Shown: positions 18,452 to 64,000 of the stretch, one piece after another
How positions within the stretch are numbered: the stretch's first letter is position 1
Layout: every line of letters starts with the position of its first letter
Source: Candidatus Omnitrophota bacterium
GTDB lineage: Bacteria; Omnitrophota; Gorgyraeia; Tantalellales; Tantalellaceae
Reading direction: 5' to 3'
NCBI GenBank assembly: GCA_024277375.1
Contig: JAJRVD010000027.1
Location: forward strand, 19,063-83,062
Length of the DNA: 64,000 nt
The notes under the pieces: generated by a model
Databases searched by the model: none
What the model saw: only the letters and a program-made list of their open reading frames with translations
What the model was told of the DNA's origin: nothing
Program-made: the position numbers and the translations under genes

Positions 18452-18597
18452 TGGGGGCGCGGCATGCAGACTGTGTCGTAATTTGTTTCGCGGATGACCG
18501 CATACAACATATTGTAGGGGTTCGATTTATCGAACCCGATATAACGGGCTTGATGAATCAAGCCCCTACATTATGACACAGTCTGATGCCGTGCCCC
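18452..18597 (+). repeat. Family D structured repeat, copy 1. It is about 115 nt, with an outer stem cagactgtg/cacagtctg and two internal hairpins. It could be an ncRNA or a MITE.
   Basis: The core tgtgtcgtaat...gtaggggttcgatttatcgaacccgatataacgggcttgatgaatcaagcccctacattatgacacag is conserved in 4 copies. The outer stem pairs with a G-U wobble (tgtgtcgtaat / attatgacaca). The internal hairpins are ggttcgat..atcgaacc and gggcttga..tcaagccc. Confidence 0.7.
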
Positions 18598-33173: not shown

Positions 33174-33220
33174 TGCAGAGGTTGCCACGTCGTCCGCTTC
33201 GCGGACTCCTCGCGGTCGAA

Positions 33221-33331
33221 TTGTGTCGTAATTCGTTTTGCGGACGCTCGCATGCAATATATCGTAGGGGTTTGATCCATAGAACCCGATATAACGGGCT
33301 TGATGAACCAAGCCCCTACATTATGACACAG
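33221..33331 (+). repeat. Family D structured repeat, copy 2
   Basis: ttgtgtcgtaattcgttttgcgg...gtaggggtttgatccatagaacccgatataacgggcttgatgaaccaagcccctacattatgacacag. It is 55 nt upstream of purH. Confidence 0.7.
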
Positions 33332-33385
33332 CTTGAATGACGGGAGAGGCACTGTACGCTAAACGCTAGAAAAAAGGAAGTTTTC

Positions 33386-39747: not shown

Positions 39748-39760
39748 GAGGTGCAAATTA

Positions 39761-39835
39761 ACGTAGGAGCCGCCTCTGGCGGCGAATTGTAAATAATGTT
39801 CGCGGAATATCACCGAAGGTGATACCGCTCCCACG
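39761..39835. repeat. Inverted doublet of REP family B variants (acgtaggagccgcctctggcggcgaa ... ccgaaggtgataccgctcccacg)
   Basis: Same architecture as 32522-32609. It lies between the L,D-transpeptidase and accA. Confidence 0.6.
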
Positions 39836-40809: not shown

Positions 40810-40812
40810 AAT

Positions 40813-41223
40813 ATGAAACAAAAAACAAGCATAGCAAATGATAGCAACCTTTTAAAAGAAGTCAGCAAGGACCTGATAAGCGCCTTGAAAGATAAAGAGG
40901 TCGTTGAAGAGATCATTTTTGATATTCATGTGGCTTTTGAAGAAGCCTTACGCAATGCCATGATCCATGGTAATAAGAATGATCCGGATAAAGAGGTTAG
41001 TGTGGAAATAGAACTATCGGACGATGCTGTAACTATTTGCATTGAAGACGAGGGAGAGGGCTTCGACCCGGATAAATTACCGGATCCGACGTTTGGTGAG
41101 AATTTACTCAAAGAAAGCGGACGCGGGGTATATCTCATGCGACACCTTATGGATGAAGTGGAACATGAGAATGATGGCAGAAAAGTAGTTATGAAGAAAC
41201 TTTTCGAAAAAAAACATTTGTAA
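40813..41223 (+). CDS. Anti-sigma-factor-type serine kinase (RsbW/SpoIIAB-like HATPase)
   Basis: N-box EALRNAMIHGN and G-box ICIEDEGEGFDPD are present. The 136-aa size is typical of RsbW. Confidence 0.7.
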   Translation: MKQKTSIANDSNLLKEVSKDLISALKDKEVVEEIIFDIHVAFEEALRNAMIHGNKNDPDKEVSVEIELSDDAVTICIEDEGEGFDPDKLPDPTFGENLLKESGRGVYLMRHLMDEVEHENDGRKVVMKKLFEKKHL

Positions 41224-41240
41224 AAATAGATGGAGGCAAA

Positions 41241-41573
41241 ATGCAGATCAACCTGGAAGAAAAAAATGACATAGCCGTTTATCGTGTAACGGGTGATATC
41301 GACATCGAGTCGTCTCCGGAGGTTAAAAAATTTTTTGATAAAGTAGCGAAAGAACAAAGGAGCAAGGTTCTGGTCAACTTAAAGGAAGTGAATTATGTTG
41401 ATTCGTCCGGTCTTGCCACGCTGGTTGAGATATTCAAGAACCTTCGAACATATGGAGGGAAACTTAAACTATCGAATCTTTCCGCTAAAGTTAATGGTCT
41501 TTTTGAAATAACAAAGCTGGACAAGCTGTTTGATATTTCCGAAGAAGAGGATGACGCTTTAAGCTCGTTCTAA
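41241..41573 (+). CDS. STAS-domain anti-sigma-factor antagonist (RsbV/SpoIIAA-like)
   Basis: 110 aa. The phosphorylatable Ser context is VNYVDSSGLATLVEI. Confidence 0.75.
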   Translation: MQINLEEKNDIAVYRVTGDIDIESSPEVKKFFDKVAKEQRSKVLVNLKEVNYVDSSGLATLVEIFKNLRTYGGKLKLSNLSAKVNGLFEITKLDKLFDISEEEDDALSSF

Positions 41574-41593
41574 ATCAGTGTAGGATTAAAAAC

Positions 41594-42391
41594 ATGAATA
41601 ATCCAATAGCCGCTATAGGCAGAGTATCAATTAATGTTTTTCAGGATACGATCAAAATACTGGGTCTTTTTTTTAATACGATCTGGTGGATAATTGTTGG
41701 TCCGTTTAAAGGAAAAACCGCCAGTCGCACGAGTGTTTTTGAACAGCTGGTATTCGCGGGGACCCAATCCGTCATTATCGTCTTTTTTATAACCTTTTTC
41801 ACCGGTATAGTTATAGCTATGCAGAGCGCTTATCAGCTTAAACAACTGGGTGCTGTAATATATGTCGCGCCCATGGTAAGCATAAGCATGGCGAGAGAAT
41901 TAGGCCCGGTGTTTGCCGCGTTAGTTGTTACCGGGAGAGTCGGCTCGGCTATTACAGCGGAACTCGGTACAATGAAGGTTTCTGAGCAGATAGAAGCATT
42001 AGAGACAATAGCGCTTGATCCGGTCAGATATCTTGTGGTTCCTCGTTTTCTGGCATTATTGATCATGTTGCCGTGTCTGACTATCATGGGGGACCTGATG
42101 GGGATATTGGGTGGCTTGGTCGTAGGAGTGTTTAACCTCAACATTAACCCATATAGATATGTTACTTTCTCATTCGACCTTATGACCTGGAAAGACATAT
42201 GGACGGGTTTGGTGAAAAGCGGAGCGTTCGCGATCATTATATCGCTAATTTCATGTCATGTAGGGTTGGAGACCCGCGGCGGCGCGGAAGGTGTTGGAAA
42301 ATCTACAACGCTAAGTGTTGTTTTAAGTTTTATTTTGATTATTTTGTTCGATTGTATTTTGACGGGAATATTTTTCTTTTCTAACATGTAA
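41594..42391 (+). CDS. mlaE: Phospholipid ABC transporter permease MlaE
   Basis: A 265-aa polytopic MlaE/Ttg2B-type permease. It is followed by the mlaF and mlaD homologues. Confidence 0.8.
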   Translation: MNNPIAAIGRVSINVFQDTIKILGLFFNTIWWIIVGPFKGKTASRTSVFEQLVFAGTQSVIIVFFITFFTGIVIAMQSAYQLKQLGAVIYVAPMVSISMARELGPVFAALVVTGRVGSAITAELGTMKVSEQIEALETIALDPVRYLVVPRFLALLIMLPCLTIMGDLMGILGGLVVGVFNLNINPYRYVTFSFDLMTWKDIWTGLVKSGAFAIIISLISCHVGLETRGGAEGVGKSTTLSVVLSFILIILFDCILTGIFFFSNM

Positions 42392-42400
42392 ATTCCTCAC

Positions 42401-42553
42401 ATAACTTACGCGACCGAAGGAAGCGTAAGTTATAAGTGGGGAATTTATCCTGAGCGAACGAACGAAGTGAGAGAGCCGAAGGATCTCATTCCAGATTCTT
42501 CGCTTCGCTCAGAATGACAGGAGTAGAGATTGCACGGGCCTGCGGCCCGCGCA
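42401..42553. repeat. Cluster of three hairpins between mlaE and mlaF, including an inverted doublet of REP family C (42445-42521)
   Basis: First hairpin: ataacttacgc..gcgtaagttat (42401-42433). Family C doublet: atcctgagcgaacgaacgaag...cttcgcttcgctcagaatgacagg. Third hairpin: gggcctgcggcccgcgc (42536-42553). Confidence 0.6.
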
Positions 42554-42593
42554 ATGAGGACATGACGAAAAGGCGAAACACAACAAGAATATC

Positions 42594-43394
42594 ATGGAAA
42601 ATAGAGAAGTAGTGATAGAAGTAAAAGATCTGGTGCGTAAGTTCGGAGACAGGACCGTTCTTAACGGAGTTAATCTCAAGGTGCATAGAGGTGAGATATT
42701 CGTTATTATGGGTGGTTCCGGATGCGGGAAAAGCACGCTTTTACGCCATATTATAGGTAATTTAAAACCCACATCGGGAAGGGTCGAATTGCTGGGTACG
42801 GATATTACGGACTTTTATGGGACAGAACTGGATGGTGTGCGCAAAAAGATAGGCATGTCATTCCAGTCTTCAGCGCTTTTTGACTCAATGACGGTTGCCG
42901 AGAATGTGAGTCTTCCCCTGAGAGAGCATACAAAACTCGAACAAAGCGTTATAGATATAATGGTGAAGATGAAGCTGGAGCTTGTGGGGCTCAGAGGGTT
43001 TGAAGACCTGTTGCCCAGTGAGATATCCGGTGGGATGAAAAAACGTGTGGGTCTTGCGCGCGCGATCGCCATGGACCCTGAAATTATTTTTTATGATGAA
43101 CCGACGGCCGGGTTGGATCCCATCGTCGCGGCAGTTGTAGATAAGCTTATTATCGACCTTGCCCGTAAACTTGCTATTACAAGTGTTGTTGTTACGCACG
43201 ATATGAAAAGCGTTATGACTATCGCGGATAGTGTAGCGATGCTTTACGAGGGGAAAGTGCTGGAAACCGGGACGGTAGAGGAGATAAAAAATTCAAAGAA
43301 TGAGATGGTTCAACAGTTCATTAATGGTGATCCGGACGGCCCTATACGATTTTTTCAACAGAAAGACGATTATTTAGAGCATTTAACGCAATAA
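42594..43394 (+). CDS. mlaF: Phospholipid ABC transporter ATP-binding protein MlaF
   Basis: Walker A GGSGCGKSTLL, signature LSGGMKKRVGLARA and Walker B IIFYDEPTAGLD are present. Confidence 0.85.
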   Translation: MENREVVIEVKDLVRKFGDRTVLNGVNLKVHRGEIFVIMGGSGCGKSTLLRHIIGNLKPTSGRVELLGTDITDFYGTELDGVRKKIGMSFQSSALFDSMTVAENVSLPLREHTKLEQSVIDIMVKMKLELVGLRGFEDLLPSEISGGMKKRVGLARAIAMDPEIIFYDEPTAGLDPIVAAVVDKLIIDLARKLAITSVVVTHDMKSVMTIADSVAMLYEGKVLETGTVEEIKNSKNEMVQQFINGDPDGPIRFFQQKDDYLEHLTQ

Positions 43395-43409
43395 AAGAAG
43401 GAGATAAAA

Positions 43410-44003
43410 ATGAGATTTAACAATGAAATAAAAGCCGGGATAGTTGTTGCGGCAGCGATCGCCGCGGGGATGCTTTTCTTTCTTAAAACAGGGACAAATT
43501 ATACTGAGACATATGAGGTGAAGACATATTTTCAATACGCCGGAAATCTTACTGCTGATGCTACAGTGAAACTCGCGGGAATTGAAGTGGGTAGGCTTAA
43601 AGAAATGAAATTCGTGTATACTCCCGAGACGAAAGTTGAGTGTATTCTTGAAATTGACGGAGTGGCGAGAATACGAGAGGATTCGCTTGCCTACATAGAT
43701 ACCGCGGGTTTCGTGGGCGACGCGTATATCGGTATTACCGCGGGAGAATCTTCTGAATTTTTGAAGGCTGGAACCACACTCAATAGTGAAGATCCGGTCC
43801 AGATGCGGCTTTTGATGAAAAAGGCTGATGATATTACGAAGAATCTGGATAGTATTCTTGTCGATATCAAATCTATTGTTTCCGATAATAAGGGGAACAT
43901 AGATGATATCGTAGTCAACTTAGAAGCTACTACTGAGAATTTCAAGGAATTCAGCGAGGATGTTAAAAAACATCCGTGGAAACTCATGTTCAAAGGGGAA
44001 TAG
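43410..44003 (+). CDS. mlaD: MCE-domain substrate-binding protein MlaD
   Basis: An N-terminal TM anchor and the MCE domain VKLAGIEVGRLKEMKF are present. It lies in an operon with mlaE and mlaF. Confidence 0.75.
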   Translation: MRFNNEIKAGIVVAAAIAAGMLFFLKTGTNYTETYEVKTYFQYAGNLTADATVKLAGIEVGRLKEMKFVYTPETKVECILEIDGVARIREDSLAYIDTAGFVGDAYIGITAGESSEFLKAGTTLNSEDPVQMRLLMKKADDITKNLDSILVDIKSIVSDNKGNIDDIVVNLEATTENFKEFSEDVKKHPWKLMFKGE

Positions 44004-44012
44004 TATATAAAC

Positions 44013-44528
44013 ATGATAAAAAAAATTATCATATGTGTTGCCTTCCTCTTAAGCCTGACTTATCTTACGTACGCCTCTAGCGATACGATCGTAATACTTT
44101 CTTTTGCCGGTGATGTGAAAATCATACCTTCCGGCGGAACAGATCCTGTTTTTTGTAATCCCGGTATGATATTGAAAGAAGGGACGCGTATTATTACGGG
44201 AGAAGAATCCTATCTTGAAATGGCTTTTGATAGATCCAGCCGAAACATCGTAATAGTAAAAGAGAACAGCGAAGTCGTCATTAGGCTGGACGGGATAGAC
44301 AAGATCAGTCTTATAGACGGTAAAATGTATACGCTTCTGCGGGAGCTTAAGAAAGGCGCGACTTTCAGGGTCCGGACACCAAGTGCCATATGCGGTGCTC
44401 GTGGTACCGGATGGAGCGTGTCGGCGGATGAAAACGTAACAGAGATCATATCTTTTGACGGCAGGGTTTTTGTTCGGGGCATAAACAGTGACGGGTCGGG
44501 AGCGGAAGAAGAGGTCTGGATCGAGTAA
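44013..44528 (+). CDS. Secreted FecR-domain protein (171 aa)
   Basis: A signal peptide is followed by the FecR-domain pattern GDVKIIPSGG...LKEGTRIITGEESYLEMAFDRSSRNIVIVKENSEV...FRVRTPSAICGARGTGWSV. Confidence 0.6.
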   Translation: MIKKIIICVAFLLSLTYLTYASSDTIVILSFAGDVKIIPSGGTDPVFCNPGMILKEGTRIITGEESYLEMAFDRSSRNIVIVKENSEVVIRLDGIDKISLIDGKMYTLLRELKKGATFRVRTPSAICGARGTGWSVSADENVTEIISFDGRVFVRGINSDGSGAEEEVWIE

Positions 44529-44872
44529 GGATATTCCAGGAAGATAAGAAAGTTCGAACGCCCCGGTAAAATGGAGAAGGTATCAGAAGCTAAGCTATCA
44601 GACTTGTTGGCGGAATTCGGGATCAAGAAAAACATACAAGATCATGACAAAATAAAAGCTATCAGTAAAATGCAGCGGATGAGAGAGGAACACACCGAAC
44701 ATTTGCTTGAGAAAAAAGATGAGAGTAGGTTTGATCAGATGCGTGATGATAAAAAAAATGACAGATCCTCGGGCGGCGGTCAGAAACACTAGGGTTAGAT
44801 TGGTCACACTGCCAAGTGGTCAATAAATAGGCTTGTGCAAAATGGAACTTTTGTTATTCAGGGTGTGTCGTA

Positions 44873-44977
44873 ATTCGTTTTGCGGATGACAGCATACAAC
44901 ATATTGTAGGGGTTCGATTCATCGAACCCGATATAACGGGCTTGATAAATCAAGCCCGTACATTATGACACAGTCTG
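44873..44977 (+). repeat. Family D structured repeat, copy 3
   Basis: gtgtgtcgtaattcgttttgcggatgacagcatacaacatattgtaggggttcgattcatcgaacccgatataacgggcttgataaatcaagcccgtacattatgacacagtctg. It lies between the two FecR-domain paralogues. Confidence 0.7.
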
Positions 44978-45030
44978 ATAAAAAACAGCGTTTCGCACAA
45001 GTCTAGTCAATGAATACAAAGGAGGGTGAT

Positions 45031-45930
45031 ATGAAATTTTTTTTAACCTTTACAGTATGCGCGATATTCGCGATCTGTGCCTCTTTCTCAGGGCATGCTT
45101 TGCCGGAGAAAGTAAGTATCATTTCTTATGGAGGGGATGCCAAAGTTGTTTTCGCGGGCCAGACAGACTCTATCGCGTGTAAGCCGGGAATGCTTTTAGA
45201 GGCGGGAGCGCGTCTCATAACCGGCAAGAACTCTTTTATCGAAATAGCTTTTGATGAAAACGCGGACAATATCGTAAAAGTTGAAGAAGAAACAGAGGTT
45301 ATTATCAAATTGTCGGGTATAGACAAGATCGAACTTGTTGATGGTGAGATGTTCACGCTGTTACAGGCTTTGGATGGAAAAGAAACTTTTCAGGTTCGTA
45401 CGCCGTTCGCGACCTGTGGAGCCAGGGGAACCGGGTGGAGGACTAAAACAGATGGCAATACCACTGATGTGGCGGTTATCAGGGACAAAGTTTACATTCG
45501 CGGTATAAATAAAGACGGGTCTGACATGGAAAAGAAATTTTGGGTTAAGGAGGGTTTTGAGAGAAAGGTAAATAAATTTGAGCGTCCCGGAAAAACGCAA
45601 AAAATAGATAAGGTAAGGTTTTCTGGCATGGAAAAAGAGATCAAGGTTCTTCAAAAGACCAAAGACAAAAAAAGAGTCCTGCCTAAGGAACCGATAAGGA
45701 CGCTGGAGAATCCTATTGTGAATAAATTGGACGATACTATCGACAAGATGGATAGGATCGACAGAATAGTGGGCCGTCAGGAGAAAGTAGAGATTAGAGA
45801 AAGGATAGACGACAGAAGAGAAGGCTTCAGAGATATAAAGAGAGATAATGTTTTAGACCGTAAGAGTGACAACAAAGTAGTGAATATACGTTTACGGAAA
45901 CCGAAGCCCGATGGCGGAGGAAATCAATAA
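45031..45930 (+). CDS. Secreted FecR-domain protein paralogue with a K/R/D/E-rich C-terminal extension
   Basis: Signal peptide. Its FecR-like segment (…FQVRTPFATCGARGTGWRT) aligns with the 44013 paralogue over about 150 aa. An AAGGAGGG RBS precedes the ATG at 45031. The C-terminal 120 aa are highly charged. Confidence 0.6.
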   Translation: MKFFLTFTVCAIFAICASFSGHALPEKVSIISYGGDAKVVFAGQTDSIACKPGMLLEAGARLITGKNSFIEIAFDENADNIVKVEEETEVIIKLSGIDKIELVDGEMFTLLQALDGKETFQVRTPFATCGARGTGWRTKTDGNTTDVAVIRDKVYIRGINKDGSDMEKKFWVKEGFERKVNKFERPGKTQKIDKVRFSGMEKEIKVLQKTKDKKRVLPKEPIRTLENPIVNKLDDTIDKMDRIDRIVGRQEKVEIRERIDDRREGFRDIKRDNVLDRKSDNKVVNIRLRKPKPDGGGNQ

Positions 45931-46961
45931 TGCGAAGATATTTCCTCGGCACATGTGTCCTTTTTATAGCCTTAGCCTTCGGTGGGGTAAGATCTTTTGC
46001 CGTTGATGAACAGATAACGGATAGGTATCCTTCTACAAGCCAGCCTCCGGAGAAAATAAAAGAAGTTGAGGAAGATGTTCCTTTCGAGCGAAAGCTCACA
46101 GAAATTACCGGATTTGTAGATCTACAGCAGGGCTATGACAATAATGTTGATCTTAATTCACAAAGACACAAAGATGGATTTTTGCAGGGGACGGCAAATA
46201 TAGACGTCAAATATGAACAGGCGGATAATTTAAAGTTGCGTGCGGGGGTAGATCTCTTTGAAGCGATTTACTATAAGCACAATGTTAATAACCTGTTAGA
46301 TGTGTCTCCTTATGCTGGTTTTGATCTGGAGATAACGCCTGAGATCATTTCCCGTAATCGTGTTATGTTTGAATATTTTTCTTATCCGAACAAGAAGGAA
46401 AGTACGTTTTCCGGGATCGTCCTTACATCGTATCTAAGGCATTATATTTCAAGAACGTTATATCAGGAAGTCGGATATGAATATATTCGGAGGTGGTATC
46501 CTGATAAGAAGGTGGCTCTCCATGAAGCGCAAGAAGGAAATATTGACAGGGGTGACGAGCGATATAGAGTCAAGTATAACGTAGGGATGTATTCGGATCG
46601 TTTTTTTGTGCGACTGAGCAATGAGTTCGCCCGGAATAACTCGAATTATACGTATCAGGAATATTATGATTATTGGTACTACAGGGTTAAGCCGTCAATC
46701 ATGTATTTCTTTACGGAAAAATTATATACAGCGGTAGGCGTTATTTATAAACGCACGAAATACAAGGATCGGCGTAGTACCGACGATCCCACGAAGATAG
46801 TAATAGATAACACTGTCATATGCGATGCTACCCTGTATTACGATATTACTTCCGGTATGACGTTCGGCCTTACGTATGCTTATAGCGAAAATTTTTCTAA
46901 TGATCCATATCAGCAATATTCAGGCAGTGTGGTTTCCGGAGGGATCTACTACAGTTTCTAA
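45930..46961 (+). CDS. Putative outer-membrane beta-barrel protein
   Basis: A signal peptide (ALAFGGVRSFA) is present. The sequence alternates and is rich in aromatic and Tyr residues. The C-terminus ...GGIYYSF ends in Phe. The stop overlaps the start of the upstream gene. Confidence 0.45.
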   Translation: MRRYFLGTCVLFIALAFGGVRSFAVDEQITDRYPSTSQPPEKIKEVEEDVPFERKLTEITGFVDLQQGYDNNVDLNSQRHKDGFLQGTANIDVKYEQADNLKLRAGVDLFEAIYYKHNVNNLLDVSPYAGFDLEITPEIISRNRVMFEYFSYPNKKESTFSGIVLTSYLRHYISRTLYQEVGYEYIRRWYPDKKVALHEAQEGNIDRGDERYRVKYNVGMYSDRFFVRLSNEFARNNSNYTYQEYYDYWYYRVKPSIMYFFTEKLYTAVGVIYKRTKYKDRRSTDDPTKIVIDNTVICDATLYYDITSGMTFGLTYAYSENFSNDPYQQYSGSVVSGGIYYSF

Positions 46962-46963
46962 AT

Positions 46964-48880
46964 ATGTTTAAAGAGTTTGATAGAACGAAAGTATTTTATT
47001 TTTTATTAATAGCCTCTCTAGTGGGGTTATTCCTCTATTTTTCATATTCCAGAGCATTTGATGAATTTGAGAACAGTGCTATTGATTTCCGTTTAAAATT
47101 GCGTCCGCACCAGGATGTTAGTGATGATATAGTTATTATTGAGATTGGTGATGACTCTATAGAGAAACTGGGGAAATGGCCTTTTCCCCGTAATTATCAC
47201 GCCCTTCTTACAAACGCGCTAAAACATTCCGGGGTAAAGACCATAGTTTTTGATATATTTTTCAGTGAAGGCAAAAAAGAGGATGAAGAGTTTGCCAGGG
47301 CTATTAGAGAAGCCGGTAACGTATATATGCCTCATGTTTTTGAGTTGGATAGGGAGAATCCGGACAGATCACGTCTTTGTGCCACAGGTTTTGCCGCTCG
47401 TTTGATAGAAGTGTACAAAAAGCCCGCTAAGGGTGTTGGTTTTATTAATGTTGTTCCGGAGATCGATGGTAAGATCCGCAGAGTTCCCCCTTTTGTCGAA
47501 TATGAAGGTGTATACCATCCGCATATAACCGTTTTAGCTGTACTGAATAACTTGGGATATAGCTTCAGCGACGTCAAGATCATTCCTCAGAAAAGTTTTA
47601 TTGTCTCTGAGGATCTGGTTATCCCTTTGGACGAGAATTCTTCGATCCTGGTTAATTATCCGGATGTTTGGGGCAAAGCTTTTCGACACTATTCCTACAT
47701 AGATATATTGCAATCTTACCTGGCGGATGTAACAGGACAGGAACCCATCGTGGACTTAAGTGAACTGAAAGACACGGTTTGCTTTATAGGCCTTACAGCG
47801 ACAGCATCACCGGATGCTCATCCATCGCCGATGGAACCGCTTTATCCGGGAGTAGGGGTTCATACGAGTCTTTATAACAGTGTGTTGAATAAAAGTCTTT
47901 TAGTAAGATTGAACCGGTGGTGGAATCTTCTTATTCTGATTATGCTGTGGGTGCTTACGGCATTCGTTACATCAAGAAGTCGTAAAAGGTTTGTTATCCC
48001 TTTTATTGTTCTTCTTATGGTGTCCTTTGTCTCCGCGGCGGTACTGCTCTTTTGTTTCGCGGGTATATGGATAGATGTTTTTTATCCTGTTGTTACGGTA
48101 GCCGCCGTGTATGTTGTTTTCGCGTTCAAAAAATATGTGGGTGAAATACAAAAGCGTGAGATATTAGAGAAAGAACTGGATATCGCGAAAAATATACAAC
48201 AGAGTTTTCTCCCCAGAGAGATCCCGGAGGTGGGAGGCATTAAGATAGGCGTTGAAATGTTAACGGCACGTCAGGTAGGTGGGGATCTTTATGATATTGT
48301 GCAGCTTGACGAGGATAGACTTGGCGTTATGTTGGGCGATGTTTCGGGGAAGGGGGTTCCGGCGGCTCTTTATATGGCAAGGGTTGTAAGTGTTTTTAAA
48401 ACCTATGTAAGGAAAGGCGCCGTCGCCGAGGTCGTAAAAAAAGTAAATGAAAGGTTGGTTGACGAGGGCGGCAGTAATCTTTTTGTAACGTTGACGTATA
48501 TGGAGTTCAAGACAAAGACCAATACTGTAGACATGGCGATAGGAGGGCATTTGCCTACTATTGTTATAGGCCCGGATGGGAATGTGGAGCTTCTTAATGT
48601 TGAGGAAGGAATGCCTTTGGGGCTTATAAGCAGTGACTTTTCACAAATAACATATAAGTATAAACCCGGAAGCATCTTTGTGCTTTATACCGATGGTGTT
48701 ACCGAGGCGATGAACCTGAAAAAAGATATGTTTGAAGAAGAGCGTCTTGTAGAACTTTCTAAAACACTAAAAGGATGTTCGCCAGAAGAAGTTGTAAAAA
48801 CAATTCACAAGGCCGTAGATGACTTTGCTGGTAAGGCCAAGCAATTCGATGACATCACGGTGATGGCGATTAAAACGTAA
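46964..48880 (+). CDS. CHASE2 sensor domain - PP2C-type serine phosphatase (RsbU/SpoIIE-like)
   Basis: The N-terminal CHASE2 pattern is DDIVIIEIGDDSIEKLGKWPFPRNYHALLTNALKHSGVKTIVFDIFF. TM helices follow. The C-terminal PP2C signature is GDVSGKGVPAALYMA...DGVTEA. Confidence 0.8.
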   Translation: MFKEFDRTKVFYFLLIASLVGLFLYFSYSRAFDEFENSAIDFRLKLRPHQDVSDDIVIIEIGDDSIEKLGKWPFPRNYHALLTNALKHSGVKTIVFDIFFSEGKKEDEEFARAIREAGNVYMPHVFELDRENPDRSRLCATGFAARLIEVYKKPAKGVGFINVVPEIDGKIRRVPPFVEYEGVYHPHITVLAVLNNLGYSFSDVKIIPQKSFIVSEDLVIPLDENSSILVNYPDVWGKAFRHYSYIDILQSYLADVTGQEPIVDLSELKDTVCFIGLTATASPDAHPSPMEPLYPGVGVHTSLYNSVLNKSLLVRLNRWWNLLILIMLWVLTAFVTSRSRKRFVIPFIVLLMVSFVSAAVLLFCFAGIWIDVFYPVVTVAAVYVVFAFKKYVGEIQKREILEKELDIAKNIQQSFLPREIPEVGGIKIGVEMLTARQVGGDLYDIVQLDEDRLGVMLGDVSGKGVPAALYMARVVSVFKTYVRKGAVAEVVKKVNERLVDEGGSNLFVTLTYMEFKTKTNTVDMAIGGHLPTIVIGPDGNVELLNVEEGMPLGLISSDFSQITYKYKPGSIFVLYTDGVTEAMNLKKDMFEEERLVELSKTLKGCSPEEVVKTIHKAVDDFAGKAKQFDDITVMAIKT

Positions 48881-48931
48881 CCTGCTATATGTGCTGAGAT
48901 AAATATGTGGATGATGCTAAAACATGTGGAG

Positions 48932-49011
48932 AAATAGGGGACTGTGCCAAGCGGCGAAGCCGCGCGTGGACTGTCCCCTATTTCTCCCGAACTGCGCGCG
49001 GTACCCCTGCC
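48932..49011 (-). repeat. Family A-prime palindrome (inverted orientation) followed by the ccgaactgcgcgcggta motif
   Basis: ggggactgtgccaagcggcgaagccgcgcgtggactgtcccc is the reverse complement of the 32247-32292 copy at about 85% identity. The 17-nt motif is shared with 18121-18137. Confidence 0.55.
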
Positions 49012-49092
49012 AATACCTGAGAAGCATGAAGTAAAATAGAAGCGGGATCTGCCCGCGAACCAAAAAAGTGTCAAAATATCAAAAGGAAAAAT

Positions 49093-50721
49093 ATGAAGTT
49101 AGAATTAAAAAAATTAAATAATTTTACACCTCGGAAAGGGCCGCTTTTGCTTATAATTATGGATGGTGTGGGGATAGGGCCTGAAGATGAGTCCAATGCC
49201 GTCTATGTTGCTAAGACACCATGCCTGGATCGTTTGTTTAGCAGCGATTTGTACTCTACGCTACAAGCGCACGGTGTCGCGGTGGGGCTTCCGAGCGATG
49301 AAGATATGGGAAATAGCGAAGTCGGACATAATGCTTTGGGTGCGGGACGTGTTTTTGCTCAAGGCGCTAAAATGGTAAATAATGCCATAAGCGATGGGAC
49401 TATTTTTAAAACGGATATATGGAATAAATTGTCGAATAAAGGGGAAAATGATGGCGGTACGATCCATTTTATAGGGCTCTTGTCGGATGGCAATGTTCAT
49501 TCTCATATTGAACAGTTGTTCGCGATGATAAAACAGCTTGCCAATGACGGTGTTAGAAGTGTGCGTGTGCATGTGCTTTTGGATGGTAGAGATGTTTACG
49601 AGAAATCCGCGTTGACGCACATAGATAAGACAGAGGAAGTGCTTGTTAAGATACGTTCCGAGAAAGGATATGATTATAGGATAGCTTCAGGCGGCGGACG
49701 AATGGTGACGACAATGGATCGATATAGTGCTGATTGGAGTGTTGTGAAAAACGGATGGGACGCGCATGTGCTCGGCAAGGCACGTCGGTTCTCTTCAGCG
49801 CGCGAAGCGGTAGAGACGTATTATAACGAAGATCCTAAAGCGACCGATCAGTATTTGCCGACTTTTGTCGTCGAGGAGGATGATAAGCCCGTGGGTCCTA
49901 TTGTTGACGGGGATTCGGTGATATTTTTTAATTTTAGAGGTGATCGCGCGATCGAGATCTCTCGCGCGTTTGAAGAGAAAGATTTTTCTGAATTTGATCG
50001 AGAAAGGGTTCCTGATGTTCTTTATGTCGGGATGATGGAATATGACGGAGATCTGCATATCCCTGAACATTTTCTGGTAGATCCGCCGCAGATCGACCGT
50101 ACGCTTTCAGAATATCTGTGTTCAGCGAACGTTAGTATGTTCGCGATCTCTGAAACTCAAAAATTCGGACATGTGACTTATTTCTGGAACGGGAATAAAT
50201 CGGGATATATTTGTCCCGATATTGAAGAGTATATCGAGATCCCTTCGGATAAAATACGGTTTGATAAAGCGCCCGGGATGAAAGCGGCGGAAATCACGGA
50301 TAAGACCATAGAATTATTAAAAAGCGGTAAATTCCGCTTTGGACGTCTTAATTTCCCGAACGGGGATATGGTAGGGCATACGGCATCGGAAAAAGCCGTA
50401 ATAGAAGCGGTAGAGTCGGTAGATGCCTCTGTTCAAAGACTTCTGGATGTTATAAAAGAACTCGGCGGTGTTGCTCTAATTACGGCCGATCATGGGAATT
50501 CTGATGAGATGTTTACTATAAAGGATGGTAAACACATACCTAAAACGGCCCATACCCTTAATCCTGTGCCTTTTGTGATATATGATCCTGAGTACTCAGA
50601 GGAATATAAGATGCGGGATCTGTCCGAAAGAGGACTTTCTAATGTAGCGGGTACGATCCTCAACCTTCTGGGGTATGAGAATGTAGAAGATTATGATCCA
50701 TCGCTGGTGGAGCTTAAATAG
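49093..50721 (+). CDS. gpmI: 2,3-bisphosphoglycerate-independent phosphoglycerate mutase
   Basis: N-terminal LLIIMDGVGI is present. The metal-binding region contains TADHGN. 542 aa. Confidence 0.85.
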   Translation: MKLELKKLNNFTPRKGPLLLIIMDGVGIGPEDESNAVYVAKTPCLDRLFSSDLYSTLQAHGVAVGLPSDEDMGNSEVGHNALGAGRVFAQGAKMVNNAISDGTIFKTDIWNKLSNKGENDGGTIHFIGLLSDGNVHSHIEQLFAMIKQLANDGVRSVRVHVLLDGRDVYEKSALTHIDKTEEVLVKIRSEKGYDYRIASGGGRMVTTMDRYSADWSVVKNGWDAHVLGKARRFSSAREAVETYYNEDPKATDQYLPTFVVEEDDKPVGPIVDGDSVIFFNFRGDRAIEISRAFEEKDFSEFDRERVPDVLYVGMMEYDGDLHIPEHFLVDPPQIDRTLSEYLCSANVSMFAISETQKFGHVTYFWNGNKSGYICPDIEEYIEIPSDKIRFDKAPGMKAAEITDKTIELLKSGKFRFGRLNFPNGDMVGHTASEKAVIEAVESVDASVQRLLDVIKELGGVALITADHGNSDEMFTIKDGKHIPKTAHTLNPVPFVIYDPEYSEEYKMRDLSERGLSNVAGTILNLLGYENVEDYDPSLVELK

Positions 50722-50778
50722 TCTTGACTATTAGGCCTTAAAATAATACAATTATTCCTCTGATCTTTCGAATATAAA

Positions 50779-51043: not shown

Positions 51044-51060
51044 GTTTGCATGAAATATGT

Positions 51061-58550: not shown

Positions 58551-60065
58551 GTGGCGGGGATGTTTAGAACTTTTCTTGTATTAGTGTTGTGTCTATCTTT
58601 TTCCTGCGGTGATGTTTTTGCCCAGGCGAAGGCGGATGACGAGCTTTTGAAAAAGGGTATTTATCTGTTTCGTCAGGAAAACTATGATGAGGCTCTTGAC
58701 GCTTTCAGCGAGGTGATAAAAAAAGATCCGAAGTCTTCTCTGGCAGAGTACTACATGGCTCTCACGTATAAGAGAACAGAAAACTATGTTGCTTCAAGAG
58801 AACATTTCGAGAAATCCTTAAGTTTAACTCCGAAGATCAAAGGCGCGCTTATAGAGTTGGTCGATCTCCTTTACCGTCTTGGGGAATATGACGAAGCTAA
58901 GAAATGGATCAAGATTGCGGAAGAGGAAGGTGTACGTCCCGCCCAGACAAAATTCCTTAAAGGTCTTACTCTTCAGAAGAACGGGGAATACGTTGAAGCC
59001 ATAAAAGCGTTCGCGGACGCTAAAGATCTGGATGATAAGCTGATACAATCGGCGGATTATCAGACCGGTGTTTGTTATCTGAAAATGAAGAGATATTCTG
59101 ACGCTCGGGATCTTTTTAAAGATGTTTTTGCCGTGGACCCTTATTCGGATATTGCCGAACAGGCTAACACATATGTCGTGGCTTTGGAACGTAAGATCGA
59201 AAAAGACAAACCTTTTCATTTTACGGCTAAAGCCGCCTTCGAGTACGATTCTAATGTTATTTTAAAACCTACGGATTCCACTCTTGTCTCGGGGGTGACC
59301 GACCAGGATGACACCCGACAGGTATTTGACCTGAAAGGCGATTATACGTTCAAGACGGAAGATAATTTCCTCAGCCTGAAGACAGGATATGGGTTTAAGG
59401 TCTCCAAACAAAATGATTTCGGCGCTTACGATCTCGTCGGCCACAACGTTTCGGCCCAGGGTAGTATTTCGTTTAAGAAAGTGCTTGTTACATTTCCGGT
59501 GAACTACAGCTATACGGTAGTTAACGAGAAAAATTATCTTTCAAGTTTTACCGCCGGAAACATTAATAATTTCATGTTGGGTAAAACTCAAATGGCGCAG
59601 TTAGGCGCGCTCTATACACACGATGACTATTTGCGACCCTCGGCTACCGCAAGTGAAGACAGAACAGGAAATGAGCTTACGGCGATCGCCGGATGGTTCC
59701 ATTTTTTTAACGGGGGAAAAGGATTTGTGAATTTGAAATACAGCTATAACAAAGATTGGACGAAAGGTGCTAACTGGCAATACTCCGGACATAAGATCAA
59801 TGCCGGTGTTTTGTATCCCTTTTGGGACAAATTTAAGTTGAGCGTAAATGGTGAAGTGTTCCTGCAAAATTTTGATAATACCCATACGGTTTTTGACAAA
59901 AAGCGGCAGGATCAGGTATATACGGCCGCGTCACTTTTGTCTTATGAATTTTTAAAGAATATGGAAGTTCAGGTTCGGTATACATATGTGAACGAAAGAT
60001 CGAATCTTAGTGTTTATGAGTACGACAGGCACATAATAAGCACGGGTGTACAATATAAGTTTTAG
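58551..60065 (+). CDS. Secreted TPR-repeat protein with C-terminal outer-membrane beta-barrel (Slam/DUF560-like architecture)
   Basis: A signal peptide is present. About 200 aa of TPR-like repeats follow (YYMALTYKRTENYVASREHFEKSL...). The C-terminal half alternates in beta-strand-like fashion and ends GVQYKF. Confidence 0.55.
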   Translation: MAGMFRTFLVLVLCLSFSCGDVFAQAKADDELLKKGIYLFRQENYDEALDAFSEVIKKDPKSSLAEYYMALTYKRTENYVASREHFEKSLSLTPKIKGALIELVDLLYRLGEYDEAKKWIKIAEEEGVRPAQTKFLKGLTLQKNGEYVEAIKAFADAKDLDDKLIQSADYQTGVCYLKMKRYSDARDLFKDVFAVDPYSDIAEQANTYVVALERKIEKDKPFHFTAKAAFEYDSNVILKPTDSTLVSGVTDQDDTRQVFDLKGDYTFKTEDNFLSLKTGYGFKVSKQNDFGAYDLVGHNVSAQGSISFKKVLVTFPVNYSYTVVNEKNYLSSFTAGNINNFMLGKTQMAQLGALYTHDDYLRPSATASEDRTGNELTAIAGWFHFFNGGKGFVNLKYSYNKDWTKGANWQYSGHKINAGVLYPFWDKFKLSVNGEVFLQNFDNTHTVFDKKRQDQVYTAASLLSYEFLKNMEVQVRYTYVNERSNLSVYEYDRHIISTGVQYKF

Positions 60066-60080
60066 CGGATCCCCGTCTTT

Positions 60081-60200
60081 CAGACTATGTCAAGATGTAG
60101 GGGCTTGATTTATCAAGCCCGTTATATCGGGTTCGATGAATCGAACCCCTACAACATTATTGCAGGCAGCCCGTCGCGAAATGACTTTTGGTACAGTCTG
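60081..60200 (-). repeat. Family D structured repeat, copy 4 (inverted orientation)
   Basis: The reverse complement reads cagactgtacc...gtaggggttcgattcatcgaacccgatataacgggcttgataaatcaagcccctacatcttgacatagtctg. The core and outer stem are conserved and the 5' arm has diverged. Confidence 0.65.
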
Positions 60201-60239
60201 TTCGCGATGGATGACAGACAAGACAATGGAGGTAATATA

Positions 60240-63200
60240 ATGAAGAGTATAAAACTGGTCGTAGCGGTAGCGGTTTCGCTGTTACTCGCGTTTCCTATGA
60301 GTGTTCTTGCTGATGTGGTTGGTACGGTTACTTGCATCGAAGGCAGGGTTGATAGACTGGATATAGAAGGGGATAAGTATCTTCCTCTCGTAGTAGGCGA
60401 GGATATCTCAGTCGGCGACGCGATAAGAACAAAGAGTTTTTCTAAAATGGAAATTTCTTTTGAGGATAATTCTGTTGTTCAGCTGGGTGATAGCTCTCAG
60501 ATCAGGATCAAGGATTATACCGTGGGTGATGATGGATATAGGAAAAGCAGCGCCATAGATCTTGATAGAGGCAAGATACGTGCTATTGTGTCAAAAACTC
60601 CGGAGTTAACGCCGTTTGATATCAACACACCAAACGCATCCGGTTTTGTTAAAGGATCCGATATTTTCGTATCGTTCCTGCAGTCATCCACGAATGTATT
60701 GGTGACGGAAGGGACATTTACAATGGCCAACCCGACGTTTCCTGATGATCGTATAGACGTGAATCCCGGTATGACTTCGCTGGTGCCTTACAACGCGCCC
60801 CCCAAAGATCCGCGTGCTTTTTTGCCATCGGAGAAAGCAAAATACGAAGATGCAATTAGTCCCATTGTTAAAAAAACCGAAGGCGTAACGGAGAAACATT
60901 TCACCAAAGCTACGGTTTCCAAAACGTCCGGTGAGGTTAGAGTGCAGTCCAAAGGCACAAAAGAGTGGAAGGTGGTAACGAAAGATGTTGTGCTGAACGT
61001 GGGAGATCGAGTCGAAACGGGTAAAACCGGGAATATTCAGATAGTTTTTGATAACGGCCTTATCATAGAGCTACGCCCAAATACGCAACTTATTATTGTG
61101 AAGCTTAATCGTAACCCGAAAACAGGTGATTACGAAAGCATATTTGAATCAAAATACGGTAAGCTTATAGCCAAACTTCAGAATAAACCTGCCACGTCTA
61201 CGTTTCAGGTTAAGACTCCGCATGCGGTATGCGGTATACGCGGAACGATAATGTATCTTGATATCCTGCCTAATGCTACCAGAAGTTTTTTTGAAGGTGG
61301 TGAAGGTTTTGTGGCGGACGCCGCTACAGGCACGGCAAGAATAATACAGTTGGGAACTACCGCAACGACAGATGGTCAGGGGAATACGACAGAATCTGAG
61401 ACTACCGATGAGGAACGTTCCGGATTCGGTAGTGGTTTTGGTTCTGAGGGTGGCGATGAATACGGTTATTCAGGCGGAGGAGGTGGTGATCCCGCTGGTG
61501 ACCCTGATCCGGATCCGGCTCCGGCACCGGATCCCGCGCCGGTAGACCCGGACCCATCGGGTGGTGATGACCCCACAGGAGGTGATGTCGGAGACAATAT
61601 TACGAACGATATTATCGTTGACTTGACCAACCAGGAGCAGATAGTTCCGGTGGTGATAAATGATGAAAATACCGGCCCTGTTGATGTGAGAGCCGATTAT
61701 AACGGCACATATGGGTGTTACGGCTCTTTCGCGGCCGATCCGGAAAGTTGGGTGAGAGGCGTAATATCGGGTTCAACCAGCGGTGCTCCATGGATGGGTA
61801 TCTATCCGGCGGCGTTTGCGGGGGAATACTTCAATCCGAACGGATTAGACCTTTTTTGGGGTGAACTCGAAGGTGAAGGCTCGGACGGTGGAAGCATATA
61901 CGGGCGCATGGTCGGCGCTTCCGGTGATGCGCATGGAACGGAAACAGTGCTAGCGTCCCTATATGTGGATCCGTCCAATACGACGGGATGGATCTTTAAC
62001 GGTAATGACACTTCGGATGTCTTCTTTATACCCGTTACAGAAAGCCCTGTCCCGGCGGAAAATTTGCTGGATTCGATAAATGAAAGCGATGTGGAAACCG
62101 AATTGTGGTTTGATTTTTATAGAGATGAAGGCTATTTCGAAGGTGAATGCGAGGTCAATCAAATAAGCATCGACAGAGAAAACTGGGGTATATGGGAAGG
62201 TATTTTTAGCGCGTGGTATGACAACCCTGAAGGCATTGAGAACTGGACCGGTGTCAATATAGATGAGGCATTTGGTTCATGGCAGTATGGCCTTTTGATG
62301 GAAAGAAGAGTGTTGTCAGCACGAGTGATGGATTTTGACGGATTCGGCGAGGGTTATTCCATCACTGTTGTTGAGGGGATAGATGATCTGGAAGGATTTC
62401 TCCGAATGGATGTTATGGGGATGTATCTGGATTCTTACAGTCTTAACACTATGTATGGGACTATCGTGGGTACGTATGAGGCTAGAGATGGTTATTATTT
62501 CGAGGGTGTTGGCGCGGGAGGATGGAGTCAAAGTCCGCTTGCGTGGAGTGCGGAAGTGGATGCGTATTATCACTATCTCGATTATGGTGAGATTACTAGT
62601 GACGATTGTGAGTACGTTCATGCCGGTTTAGCGGGCGCTGTAACTTCACCGTTCGTTTCGCCCGGGACTCCGGTCGCGATCACCCTTATGGGGGAGACAG
62701 AACCCTATGGGTATATTTCATGGTGGGGGTATGTGTCCGAAAATGAGATGAGCGATGGTAGTGTTCTTCCCGACGGTTTTATCGGGGGGCGCACGAATTC
62801 CTGCGAGGGGATGCTTGCCAGTTTGTATATAGACGGCGACGGTCATGCCGGAACATTGTGGGGCAACTTTGACGGTGAATATTATGAGAATTTTGACATG
62901 TGGATGGCGACGGGAAGTATGACCGCTACGCAAAGAACCGTAGGGTATGACCCAGGGAGCTATGACACGGATGTTTACTATATGGATGGCGATATATACG
63001 GAGACTTTAATGATACGGGAGGGGAGATCTATTCTGACTATGGGATATACGGTGTGGCATATGGAGAACTGGGCGCGTACACAGCGTGGTTGATCAATCC
63101 CGAAACGGGTGATGCTGAACCGTGGGGTATATACAATATTGAACTTGGTGGTTATTTTGACTATCCAGATACATCGGACGACTGGACTCTTTATCTTGGT

Positions 63201-64000
63201 TGTGATAACGGTGAATGGCGTGATCTGGATCCGGATGAAAGATGGTTTGCGACCGTAGAAGGCAGTCAGTGGTCGGATCAAAGAATAGCGGGTACCTTAT
63301 ACGGAAGATATATGACTTCCAGGGTGCTGGGGACTATCAGCGGCGAAGTTCTCGGAAGCTATGATACGGAAGATTATGAGTCTTGGGAGGCGATAGCTCT
63401 CGGGGTGTTTACGGAAGAACCTCTTTCTCACCGTGGAAAAATCGAAGATGGTGAATTTTACGCGTTTACATTTGATGGGAGAATGGAATTCGGATTGAAT
63501 CCGGAACCCATCGGAGACATGAATGGTGTTATGGGTGGTGTGGGATCCTTGTGGTCGGGAGCGGATGACGTAACGTTATTGGGGTCGAGCCAATTGTATG
63601 ATAGTCTATCTTCTTGTGTGTGGAGGGCTCCTGTGTATAGTCGTAATGATGGAAGAATAACTTACACTACTTATGATGGCGGCGCTTACTATGGTTTCCT
63701 TCTCGGTTCACAGCGTGAGACTGAGATTGAAGGGGTGATGAGAGCACTGTACTTAGGACCGCCTGACGAGGATGGGAATATGGACGTTGGATTTGTTTCC
63801 GGTGATTTTTCCGGGGTGAATGCTCCCGATCTGGATATGTTCTGGATGGAAGGTTCCCTAGAGACAAATAGTATGGGTGTTTTTACGGAAATGCCGGGGA
63901 TATCATCACCTGAAGATCTGTACTTTTATTTCTCCGAGAACGATGAAGAGAGTTTCTTGGCCGGGGTAGGTGTTTGCCTGGGGGATCCGGAAGGAGAATC
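60240..64000 (+). CDS. Giant secreted protein (more than 1250 aa, 3'-partial). Two N-terminal FecR domains, a Pro/Asp/Gly-rich linker, and a long W/Y/G/D-rich repetitive region
   Basis: The ORF runs from the ATG at 60240 to the window end without a stop. It is absent from the track because it is unterminated. The signal peptide is MKSIKLVVAVAVSLLLAFPMSVLA. FecR domain 1 spans about aa 25-130. FecR domain 2 spans about aa 235-340 (…FQVKTPHAVCGIRGTIMYLD). The linker is PDPDPAPAPDPAPVDPDPSGGDDPTGGD, near nt 61490-61600. Confidence 0.75.
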   Translation, partial: MKSIKLVVAVAVSLLLAFPMSVLADVVGTVTCIEGRVDRLDIEGDKYLPLVVGEDISVGDAIRTKSFSKMEISFEDNSVVQLGDSSQIRIKDYTVGDDGYRKSSAIDLDRGKIRAIVSKTPELTPFDINTPNASGFVKGSDIFVSFLQSSTNVLVTEGTFTMANPTFPDDRIDVNPGMTSLVPYNAPPKDPRAFLPSEKAKYEDAISPIVKKTEGVTEKHFTKATVSKTSGEVRVQSKGTKEWKVVTKDVVLNVGDRVETGKTGNIQIVFDNGLIIELRPNTQLIIVKLNRNPKTGDYESIFESKYGKLIAKLQNKPATSTFQVKTPHAVCGIRGTIMYLDILPNATRSFFEGGEGFVADAATGTARIIQLGTTATTDGQGNTTESETTDEERSGFGSGFGSEGGDEYGYSGGGGGDPAGDPDPDPAPAPDPAPVDPDPSGGDDPTGGDVGDNITNDIIVDLTNQEQIVPVVINDENTGPVDVRADYNGTYGCYGSFAADPESWVRGVISGSTSGAPWMGIYPAAFAGEYFNPNGLDLFWGELEGEGSDGGSIYGRMVGASGDAHGTETVLASLYVDPSNTTGWIFNGNDTSDVFFIPVTESPVPAENLLDSINESDVETELWFDFYRDEGYFEGECEVNQISIDRENWGIWEGIFSAWYDNPEGIENWTGVNIDEAFGSWQYGLLMERRVLSARVMDFDGFGEGYSITVVEGIDDLEGFLRMDVMGMYLDSYSLNTMYGTIVGTYEARDGYYFEGVGAGGWSQSPLAWSAEVDAYYHYLDYGEITSDDCEYVHAGLAGAVTSPFVSPGTPVAITLMGETEPYGYISWWGYVSENEMSDGSVLPDGFIGGRTNSCEGMLASLYIDGDGHAGTLWGNFDGEYYENFDMWMATGSMTATQRTVGYDPGSYDTDVYYMDGDIYGDFNDTGGEIYSDYGIYGVAYGELGAYTAWLINPETGDAEPWGIYNIELGGYFDYPDTSDDWTLYLGCDNGEWRDLDPDERWFATVEGSQWSDQRIAGTLYGRYMTSRVLGTISGEVLGSYDTEDYESWEAIALGVFTEEPLSHRGKIEDGEFYAFTFDGRMEFGLNPEPIGDMNGVMGGVGSLWSGADDVTLLGSSQLYDSLSSCVWRAPVYSRNDGRITYTTYDGGAYYGFLLGSQRETEIEGVMRALYLGPPDEDGNMDVGFVSGDFSGVNAPDLDMFWMEGSLETNSMGVFTEMPGISSPEDLYFYFSENDEESFLAGVGVCLGDPEGE

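Follow-up and report, generated by a model that had tools for sequence, protein, structure and literature searches.

Secreted FecR-domain proteins encoded beside a predicted 14-strand barrel and a CHASE2-PP2C phosphatase in a Candidatus Omnitrophota bacterium

FecR-domain proteins and CHASE2 sensors in described systems

The FecR domain (PF04773) is known from FecR-type anti-sigma factors, in which it is accompanied by DUF4880, a transmembrane helix and an FecR_C/STN-binding subdomain; signalling of this type involves an extracytoplasmic function (ECF) sigma factor, a TonB-dependent transducer and regulated proteolysis of the anti-sigma factor. The 64,000-nucleotide (nt) stretch of contig JAJRVD010000027.1 from a Candidatus Omnitrophota bacterium that is analysed here (the window, whose positions are used throughout) encodes two small tandem FecR proteins, FecR-A and FecR-B, and further downstream a giant FecR protein. 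Unlike the anti-sigma factors, the window proteins carry none of the three accompanying parts, and genes for an ECF sigma factor or a TonB-dependent transducer are not nearby (none is present among the window open reading frames (ORFs) scanned). The barrel encoded next to the FecR pair has 14 strands and no plug, and the output consists of a PP2C phosphatase and a partner-switching pair instead of regulated anti-sigma proteolysis.

Gene pairs of an FecR-domain protein and a CHASE2 sensor have been described in two other groups. Burkholderiales and P. aeruginosa share a conserved LysM-FecR gene beside a gene for a CHASE2 histidine kinase, and the factors recognised by the Burkholderia CHASE2 domains are stated as not known (PMC5192318); in Campylobacterota an FecR-domain gene lies beside a CHASE2 cyclase, together with a TPR protein (PMC9239204). 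The window resembles both the Burkholderia BiofilmReg and the Campylobacterota pairs in that a secreted FecR-domain protein is encoded beside a CHASE2 sensor, and resembles the latter also in the TPR protein of its second, giant FecR module. It differs from both in having no LysM domain (no match in a Pfam scan of the window FecR proteins), in a PP2C output rather than a kinase or cyclase, in its dedicated 14-strand barrel, in the setting of the module among MlaFED and RsbW/STAS genes, and in an FecR gene that is tandem-duplicated or fused to a giant. FecR-domain and CHASE2 genes are paired in the window, in 20 of 35 related loci, and at locus L045, where CHASE2, TPR-barrel and giant FecR genes occur together. 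The FecR pair belongs to a known but uncharacterised FecR-CHASE2 association, to which the window adds as new features a 14-strand barrel, a PP2C/STAS/RsbW output, embedded Mla genes and a giant paralogous form.

An outer-membrane component of CHASE2 perception is known from Sinorhizobium meliloti, in which the CHASE2 cyclases CyaD1, CyaD2 and CyaK are reported to perceive a plant protein signal via the outer-membrane barrel NsrA, which is needed for perception at the inner membrane (PMC13001267). The output of that pathway is cAMP, and NsrA is likened to the window barrel by role; the S. meliloti FecR-domain protein SMc02177 is described as a downstream target rather than as a co-sensor (PMC5498481). 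Leptospira LipL45 (Qlp42) and Lsa33 are already known as exported, stand-alone FecR-domain proteins and are similar in size (PMC5553009). Of the NCBIfam families these match the window proteins best (E 1.4e-11 to 1.5e-25); the scores of 29-90 bits, however, are far below the cutoffs of 350-420, and the Leptospira proteins are lipoproteins.

What CHASE2 sensors detect is largely unknown, S. meliloti being the one case with a named signal among the systems compared here. The exported FecR-fold protein, the small barrel and the CHASE2-PP2C fusion form a conserved trio in the window and about 20 related Omnitrophota loci; taken with the Burkholderia, Campylobacterota and S. meliloti systems, the trio supports a view of CHASE2 as the inner-membrane end of a surface-signalling chain like that of FecA/FecR, rather than as a small-molecule receptor. 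The gene context would provide a concrete and testable hypothesis for CHASE2 signal reception.

The FecR proteins and the genes encoded beside them

FecR-A is a 171-amino-acid (aa) protein with a signal peptide and an FecR domain (44013..44528, + strand); FecR-B is a 299 aa paralogue with a signal peptide, an FecR β-domain at residues ~28-191 and a charged helical tail (45031..45930, + strand), and the two are 43% identical across 208 residues. Pfam membership was defined as a hidden Markov model (HMM) match above the gathering score, which is 24 bits for FecR; the matches reach 36.2 bits (E 8.4e-9) for 44013-44525, 36.8 bits (E 5.4e-9) for 45031-45927, and, in two stretches, 85.5 bits (E 3.5e-24) for 60240-63998. 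A preliminary description of this DNA, which assigned FecR domains to these three genes and placed a pair of them at the head of the giant protein, is borne out in both respects; a six-frame search with the family HMM finds these three FecR genes only in the 64-kb window. The motif quoted in that description, (V/K)RTP-A-CGARGTGW, is present in both small proteins (FRVRTPSAICGARGTGW and FQVRTPFATCGARGTGW) and as a variant in the giant's second FecR domain (FQVKTPHAVCGIRGT, VKTPHAVCGIRGT). It had also taken the small proteins to be standalone and secreted, which agrees with their N-termini, which by inspection resemble signal peptides (MIKKIIICVAFLLSLTYLTYA followed by SS and MKFFLTFTVCAIFAICASFSGHA followed by LP), and with a Pfam scan of the window FecR proteins that finds no DUF4880, transmembrane anchor or FecR_C (PF16344), the N-terminus being read by inspection as a signal peptide; in a control run DUF4880, FecR and FecR_C were all detected in E. 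coli FecR.

The AlphaFold2 model of FecR-B, built from 18 sequences, has an N-terminal helix (residues 3-17) followed by an unstructured stretch, a confident β-rich core at ~28-191 (pLDDT mostly >90) and a helical, charged C-terminal tail of low confidence; FecR-B also contains the conserved motif GFERK..FERPGK. Neither the FecR family profile nor the neighbouring 343 aa barrel finds a match among PDB sequences, and fold comparison was used instead, in which the best structural matches of the FecR fold are signalling domains. G133-T134 is invariant in 18/18 family members and aligns with Gly181-Thr182 of E. coli FecR; the pairwise hhalign comparison is weak (E 0.12), and the Pfam registers agree. 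Gly181-Thr182 is the non-enzymatic self-cleavage site of FecR, and FoxR likewise self-cleaves (PMC9249621).

A profile search of 1.84 billion cluster representatives (clusters at 50% identity) returns 377 clusters at E<=1e-30, a number that rises to 3174 at E<=1e-10 and to 16,005 at E<=1e-3, and all but four of the best 150 clusters have lengths of 187-428 aa; these counts and lengths indicate a sizeable stand-alone subfamily and not an expansion private to one genome. All homologues with a named source come from metagenome-assembled genomes (MAGs) of Candidatus Omnitrophota or from MAGs labelled uncultured Planctomycetia, and judged by the homologues found, the subfamily appears almost confined to Candidatus Omnitrophota. 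The expanded, lineage-specific family suggested in the preliminary description is therefore apt as to lineage; there is no local expansion, the tandem pair being present in at least 12 other Omnitrophota genomes.

The main context of the FecR pair, missed in the preliminary description, is a conserved barrel gene and a CHASE2-PP2C gene that follow it directly. The first of these (45930..46961, + strand) encodes a 343 aa protein with the predicted structure of a 14-stranded outer-membrane β-barrel, and the second (46964..48880, + strand) a fusion of a CHASE2 sensor (Pfam E 1.6e-51) to a PP2C phosphatase of the SpoIIE/RsbU type (SpoIIE E 1.7e-47). The genes overlap or nearly abut: the barrel start overlaps the FecR-B stop (TAATG), the CHASE2 gene begins 2 nt past the barrel stop, and MlaD and FecR-A are 9 nt apart. 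By tblastn of the window proteins against 35 loci from species-representative Omnitrophota genomes, the gene order in relatives is AccA, RsbW-like kinase, STAS, MlaE, MlaF, MlaD, FecR (one or two copies), the 343 aa protein, CHASE2-SpoIIE(PP2C) and iPGM, and the window has the identical order from 39853 to 50721. FecR followed by the barrel gene and then the CHASE2 gene occurs in 20 of the 35 loci; FecR is in tandem in 12, and at least 10 more distant loci have a single FecR in the same operon position, with MlaD and/or barrel and CHASE2 genes adjoining.

The upstream part of the operon begins with an RsbW-like serine kinase/anti-sigma protein (40813..41223, + strand; HATPase_c_2, PF13581 E 8e-29), which is syntenic in 20+ Omnitrophota loci, followed by an anti-anti-sigma-type STAS protein (41241..41573, + strand; Pfam STAS E 7e-24) with the phospho-serine motif YVDSSGLATL, as read from the translation. 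The ABC-type lipid-transport genes span 41594..44003 and comprise MlaE (41594-42391) and MlaF (42594-43394; ABC_tran), both assigned on the L001 orthologues, which are 64-83% identical, and MlaD (43410-44003; Pfam MlaD E 6.6e-14), all on the + strand. With the PP2C phosphatase, the phosphorylatable serine of the STAS protein (DSSGL) and the HATPase_c_2 kinase, the operon encodes a partner-switching set of the RsbU-RsbV-RsbW type. Across Omnitrophota the kinase gene and the DSSGL-bearing STAS gene keep this place directly upstream of MlaE-MlaF-MlaD. The STAS protein might also serve the transporter as an MlaB-like subunit regulated by phosphorylation, and a phosphorylatable STAS protein and kinase in this position suggest regulated lipid transport.

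In a neighbour-joining tree (no support values), the window FecR-A groups with the A copies of L007, L008, L009 and L015, and FecR-B with the B copies of L007, L008, L010 and L013. A and B types are thus common to related lineages, which makes the duplication old in this sub-lineage; by these groupings the two copies go back to an old duplication common to at least the L007 and L008 lineages. Clean A/B orthology across all genomes was considered and rejected: the other FecR copies group by genome, the tree is star-like, and only the closest lineages share the types.

A second, paralogous module of FecR and barrel genes is encoded near the end of the window, and in one relative it has its own CHASE2-PP2C gene. 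The giant FecR protein (60240..64000, + strand; Pfam FecR E 3.5e-24) contains a signal peptide, two FecR domains, a D/P/G-rich linker and a W/Y/G/D-rich region; the gene runs past the window end, and the full length is 1550 aa (database entry P0062). Giant homologues are 835-2124 aa in length, and all of those with a source name are from Omnitrophota. The preceding gene (58551..60065, + strand) encodes TPR repeats, by matches to Pfam TPR families, and a C-terminal β-barrel resembling DUF2860 (28.4 bits, cutoff 22.9), with weak TPR_Slam and BBP2_2 matches; families of Slam-type translocons, which combine TPR with a 14-strand DUF560 barrel, are not matched above cutoff (TPR_Slam 23.8 bits against 35.2), the barrel part matching DUF2860 and not a Slam barrel family. 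This TPR-barrel of ~500 aa precedes giant FecR in 6/6 loci with upstream sequence (L042, L043, L045, L047, L048 and L049), and a SurA-N-like gene follows giant FecR in 6 of the 7 loci examined, five of them distinct. The TPR-barrel, giant FecR and SurA-like genes form a conserved trio, and at L045 a second CHASE2-SpoIIE gene lies directly upstream of it. By hhalign the 343 aa barrel family can be aligned with the C-terminal strands of the TPR-barrel (probability 83%, E 8.5e-6), and on this alignment the two barrels appear homologous; the combination of FecR fold and barrel thus occurs twice, in paralogous form.

One unbroken FecR cluster between 44 kb and 64 kb, ending in the giant gene as the preliminary description had it, was rejected, as ~9.7 kb of housekeeping genes and tRNAs (48880 to 58551) separate the small FecR operon from the giant module; these are iPGM, two tRNAs, arginase, LeuRS, ComEC and three more tRNAs. 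In other Omnitrophota, small FecR genes lie immediately upstream of unrelated giants, one of 2982 aa with no Pfam match (L004:10001-20112) and one a GH94 protein of 2052 aa (L039:19-7449); these pairs echo the fused giant FecR of the window.

Candidate roles of the FecR proteins

FecR-A and FecR-B are proposed to be periplasmic partners or co-sensors that join the outer-membrane barrel to the CHASE2-PP2C phosphatase, a role that is the best supported of those considered and is given about an even chance of being correct. The proposal is based on the domain identities, the conserved synteny, the tight gene coupling, the recurrence of the arrangement in the giant module, the published FecR-CHASE2 pairs, the NsrA barrel of S. 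meliloti and the alignment of G133-T134 with Gly181-Thr182 of E. coli FecR; from these we infer the physical contacts, the signalling direction, the ligand and the output of the module. In the proposed chain the dedicated 14-strand barrel (45930-46961) would pass on an outer-membrane or envelope event to the FecR proteins, in a coupling likened to the FecA-FecR link, and the FecR proteins would then act on the periplasmic region (residues ~22-333) of the inner-membrane CHASE2-PP2C protein (46964-48880). The cytoplasmic PP2C domain would dephosphorylate the STAS protein at its DSSGL serine; the dephosphorylated STAS protein would switch partner with the RsbW-like kinase and so change the output, for which a sigma factor or the co-encoded MlaFED transporter is a candidate.

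Several observations weigh against a co-sensor role. Gene order alone cannot tell whether FecR partners CHASE2, the barrel or MlaD. Loci L023 and L026 retain MlaD-FecR but have neither the barrel nor CHASE2, seven family members are found in unrelated contexts, and a CHASE2 neighbour is present at only one of the six giant-FecR loci examined. The window FecR proteins are without the FecR_C/STN-binding subdomain through which true FecR proteins contact their outer-membrane transducer, and the barrel is without a signalling domain and without a plug; the pairwise hhalign comparison to E. coli FecR is also weak, although its register agrees with that of Pfam. In L023 and L026 (~7870-8600 in each) the FecR protein is shorter, at 237-238 aa, and iPGM lies directly after FecR.

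The proximity of FecR to MlaD can also be read as a sign that FecR and the barrel are the periplasmic and outer-membrane parts of the MlaFED transporter, replacing MlaC and MlaA, with the CHASE2-PP2C, RsbW and STAS proteins as its regulators. FecR lies directly after MlaD in 25 of the 35 loci, with the 9 nt gap in the window, and the MlaD-FecR pair persists in L023 and L026 without the other two genes; Pfam scans reveal no MlaC or MlaA homologue in the operon, and a protein of MlaB's domain type, STAS, is encoded just upstream of MlaE. Nevertheless, FecR, barrel and CHASE2 genes occur together without MlaEFD at L038 and L045, FecR-CHASE2 pairs are found without Mla genes in other phyla (PMC5192318, PMC9239204), and the FecR fold has no known lipid-binding role, its best structural matches being signalling domains. 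A place for FecR in the transporter itself is considered improbable.

A further possibility is that FecR is a periplasmic stopper that retains proteins passing through the barrel. Their C-terminal part would be exposed outside the cell to serve as an adhesin or contact sensor, and any coupling to CHASE2 would be secondary; the displayed part would be the charged helical tail of the small proteins or the ~1100 aa W/Y/G/D-rich region of the giant. This is unlikely, though the structural match of the fold to 5ix9 speaks for it, as does a sub-threshold match to retention_LapA (NCBIfam NF033682) that reaches 32 bits against a cutoff of 50. Secretion of LapA-type adhesins is of type I and uses a TolC-like pore; it involves neither a signal peptide nor a 14-strand barrel. 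The model of the small proteins' tail has low confidence, and the conserved CHASE2-PP2C neighbour would be left without a reason.

The stopper and the CHASE2 partner might also be combined, with FecR as the stopper on a polypeptide threaded through the 14-strand barrel and CHASE2 reading either a pull or Gly-Thr self-cleavage, so that surface contact or envelope stress is relayed through PP2C, STAS and RsbW to control MlaFED, with the STAS protein as an MlaB-like subunit. In the small proteins the threaded part would be the short charged tail, in the giant the 1100 aa W/Y/G/D-rich surface region. This combination is regarded as decidedly improbable; if it is true, CHASE2 domains would have a mechanism and, as their ligand class, a protein partner, and this would be the first phospho-regulated Mla system.

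The FecR-A stop codon and the family-D repeat

An in-frame TAA (44526-44528) cuts FecR-A short at codon 172, past which no further stop occurs in this frame before 44792. These 87 codons (44529..44792, + strand) still match the family (HMM positions 175-256, E 9.5e-16) and encode the remnant of the C-terminus, with the GYSRKIRKFERPGK motif and a charged tail; the conserved GY/F-x-RK-x-KFE-x-PGK motif is included. The stop aligns with a Glu in FecR-B and with coding residues in 16/16 relatives, and the first FecR gene encodes at least 257 aa in every relative examined; given the conserved frame past the stop and the full length in relatives, the ancestral FecR-A is taken to be 44013-44792, which would encode 259 aa.

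Truncated FecR-A could be a decaying pseudogene with FecR-B alone functional in this organism, a possibility that falls somewhat short of an even chance. The lone TAA takes away the last β-strands and the invariant G..P..K motif, and single-copy genomes show that one FecR is enough; however, the open and conserved codons past the stop indicate that the change is either very recent or an error. A second gene in the window is interrupted in a like manner: a helicase of the UvrD/PcrA type (14858-16879) is split by an in-frame TAA at 16544-16546 (context GAA GAA TAA CAG), past which its UvrD_C Pfam match resumes in the same frame. In both genes the TAA comes after a Glu codon, which suggests G-to-T consensus errors in the assembly or recent nonsense mutations; consensus errors would count against a pseudogene. 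Genome-wide reassignment of TAA was rejected as a cause of the FecR-A stop, as TAA is the commonest ordinary stop (13 of 27 genes). For annotation, the first FecR paralogue carries a stop that calls for a check against the reads.

The spacer between FecR-A and FecR-B is 238 nt long, compared with -4 to 219 nt in relatives, and contains a copy of the family-D repeat. Family-D is a 124-nt unit present in four copies in the window, all intergenic, and its central 21-mer occurs four times, where none is expected by chance. Three copies are on the + strand: one upstream of an unrelated gene of 3657 aa (18464..18587), one upstream of purH (AICARFT/IMPCHase; 33214..33337) and one between the FecR genes (44856..44979). 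The fourth copy, before giant FecR (60080..60203, - strand; nhmmer HMM positions 4-123), is full length, inverted relative to the other three and 92-94% complementary to them. The preliminary description was right in placing copies between the small paralogues and before the giant, the latter being an inverted copy.

The anatomy of family-D is that of a repetitive extragenic palindromic (REP) doublet. Its core reads GTAG-GGGTTCGATTYATCGAACCC-GATATAAC-GGGCTTGATRAATCAAGCCC-CTAC, a pair of similar, mutually inverted palindromes, each with GTAG at its head; the GTAG and palindrome, GTAGGGGTTCGATTYATCGAACCC and on the other strand GTAGGGGCTTGATTYATCAAGCCC, are present in 4/4 copies, and the two REPs are separated by the 8-nt spacer GATATAAC (the core of the copy between the FecR genes is at 44906-44961). 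A GTAG head with a short palindrome is the definition of a GTAG-tagged REP (PMC3733652), and doublets of this anatomy are also termed REPINs or BIMEs (PMC3733652, PMC3337134). Shared features are the palindrome of ~20 nt in each half and the intergenic, dispersed placement in both orientations, and related copies show compensatory stem changes. Family-D differs from these elements in that its doublet is held inside the 124-nt unit, with 16-nt terminal inverted repeats of its own (CAGACTGTGTCGTAAT / ATTATGACACAGTCTG) and an extra hairpin, and in that no RAYT transposase gene or Y1_Tnp match is found among the window ORFs scanned. With locus-specific complementary flanks, the copies fold as very long hairpins of -69 to -110 kcal/mol.

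The preliminary description suggested that recombination might occur among the repeats; a functional tie of family-D to the FecR genes, as a driver of recombination or duplication or as a shared 5' element, is highly improbable. Two of the four copies do lie just upstream of FecR starts (52 nt before FecR-B and 37 nt before giant FecR), and each of the four has a + strand gene beginning 37-63 nt downstream; the other two, however, precede purH and the unrelated giant gene, and the copy before giant FecR is inverted, so that a strand-specific RNA or promoter role could not be shared. A motif of the 5' untranslated region common to FecR genes was rejected on the same two grounds. No family-D copy is present in ~0.5 Mb of the relatives' loci, FecR-FecR spacers included, and 12 of these relatives have tandem FecR genes; the FecR duplication thus predates the insertion of the repeat. 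The exact 21-nt core is absent from species-representative genomes and JGI metagenomes; a relaxed pattern finds 17 related cores on 14 metagenome contigs, none of which encodes an FecR-family protein. The related cores adjoin different hairpin modules and carry the compensatory changes TTCGAT/ATCGAA vs TTCAAT/ATTGAA and GTCGGAT/ATCCGAC. At gathering thresholds Rfam finds five tRNAs only in the whole window and nothing for the repeat, and a scan of 43900-46100 for promoters and terminators gives nothing above shuffled expectation. Judged by this comparison, family-D is most simply an unrelated, dispersed GTAG-tagged REP doublet inserted by chance into the FecR-FecR spacer; as an ordinary dispersed palindrome it provides no evidence of recombination among FecR genes, and for annotation it is to be treated as a REP-type element.

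Other palindromic elements are present. At L152:1700-1760 a related REP doublet lies immediately after a sequence like the 3' end of a tRNA (GGTTCGAATCC...CCA), which hints at insertion beside tRNA genes in that relative. Further palindromic intergenic families in the window are located at 18233-18286, 18685-18738 and 55532-55585; 39754-39786, 55958-55990, 7979-8027 and 56478-56526; 30766-30807 and 32250-32291; 12270-12297; and 42523-42557. Many of the short palindromic families are GTAG-headed, one pair flanks mgtE, and one element is found between MlaE and MlaF. REP-type elements of several families appear to be abundant in the genome.

Two observations concern ORFs at the start of the window and near the first family-D copy. 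Three consecutive ORFs of 1460, 268 and 292 aa (494-6607), with no Pfam match, lie in one frame separated by TAG stops only; they may be pieces of a single interrupted giant gene, or separate genes whose shared frame is due to chance. The 3657 aa ORF called from the GTG at 18650 starts by translating the palindromic repeat copy 18685-18738; its true start is probably the ATG near 18755.

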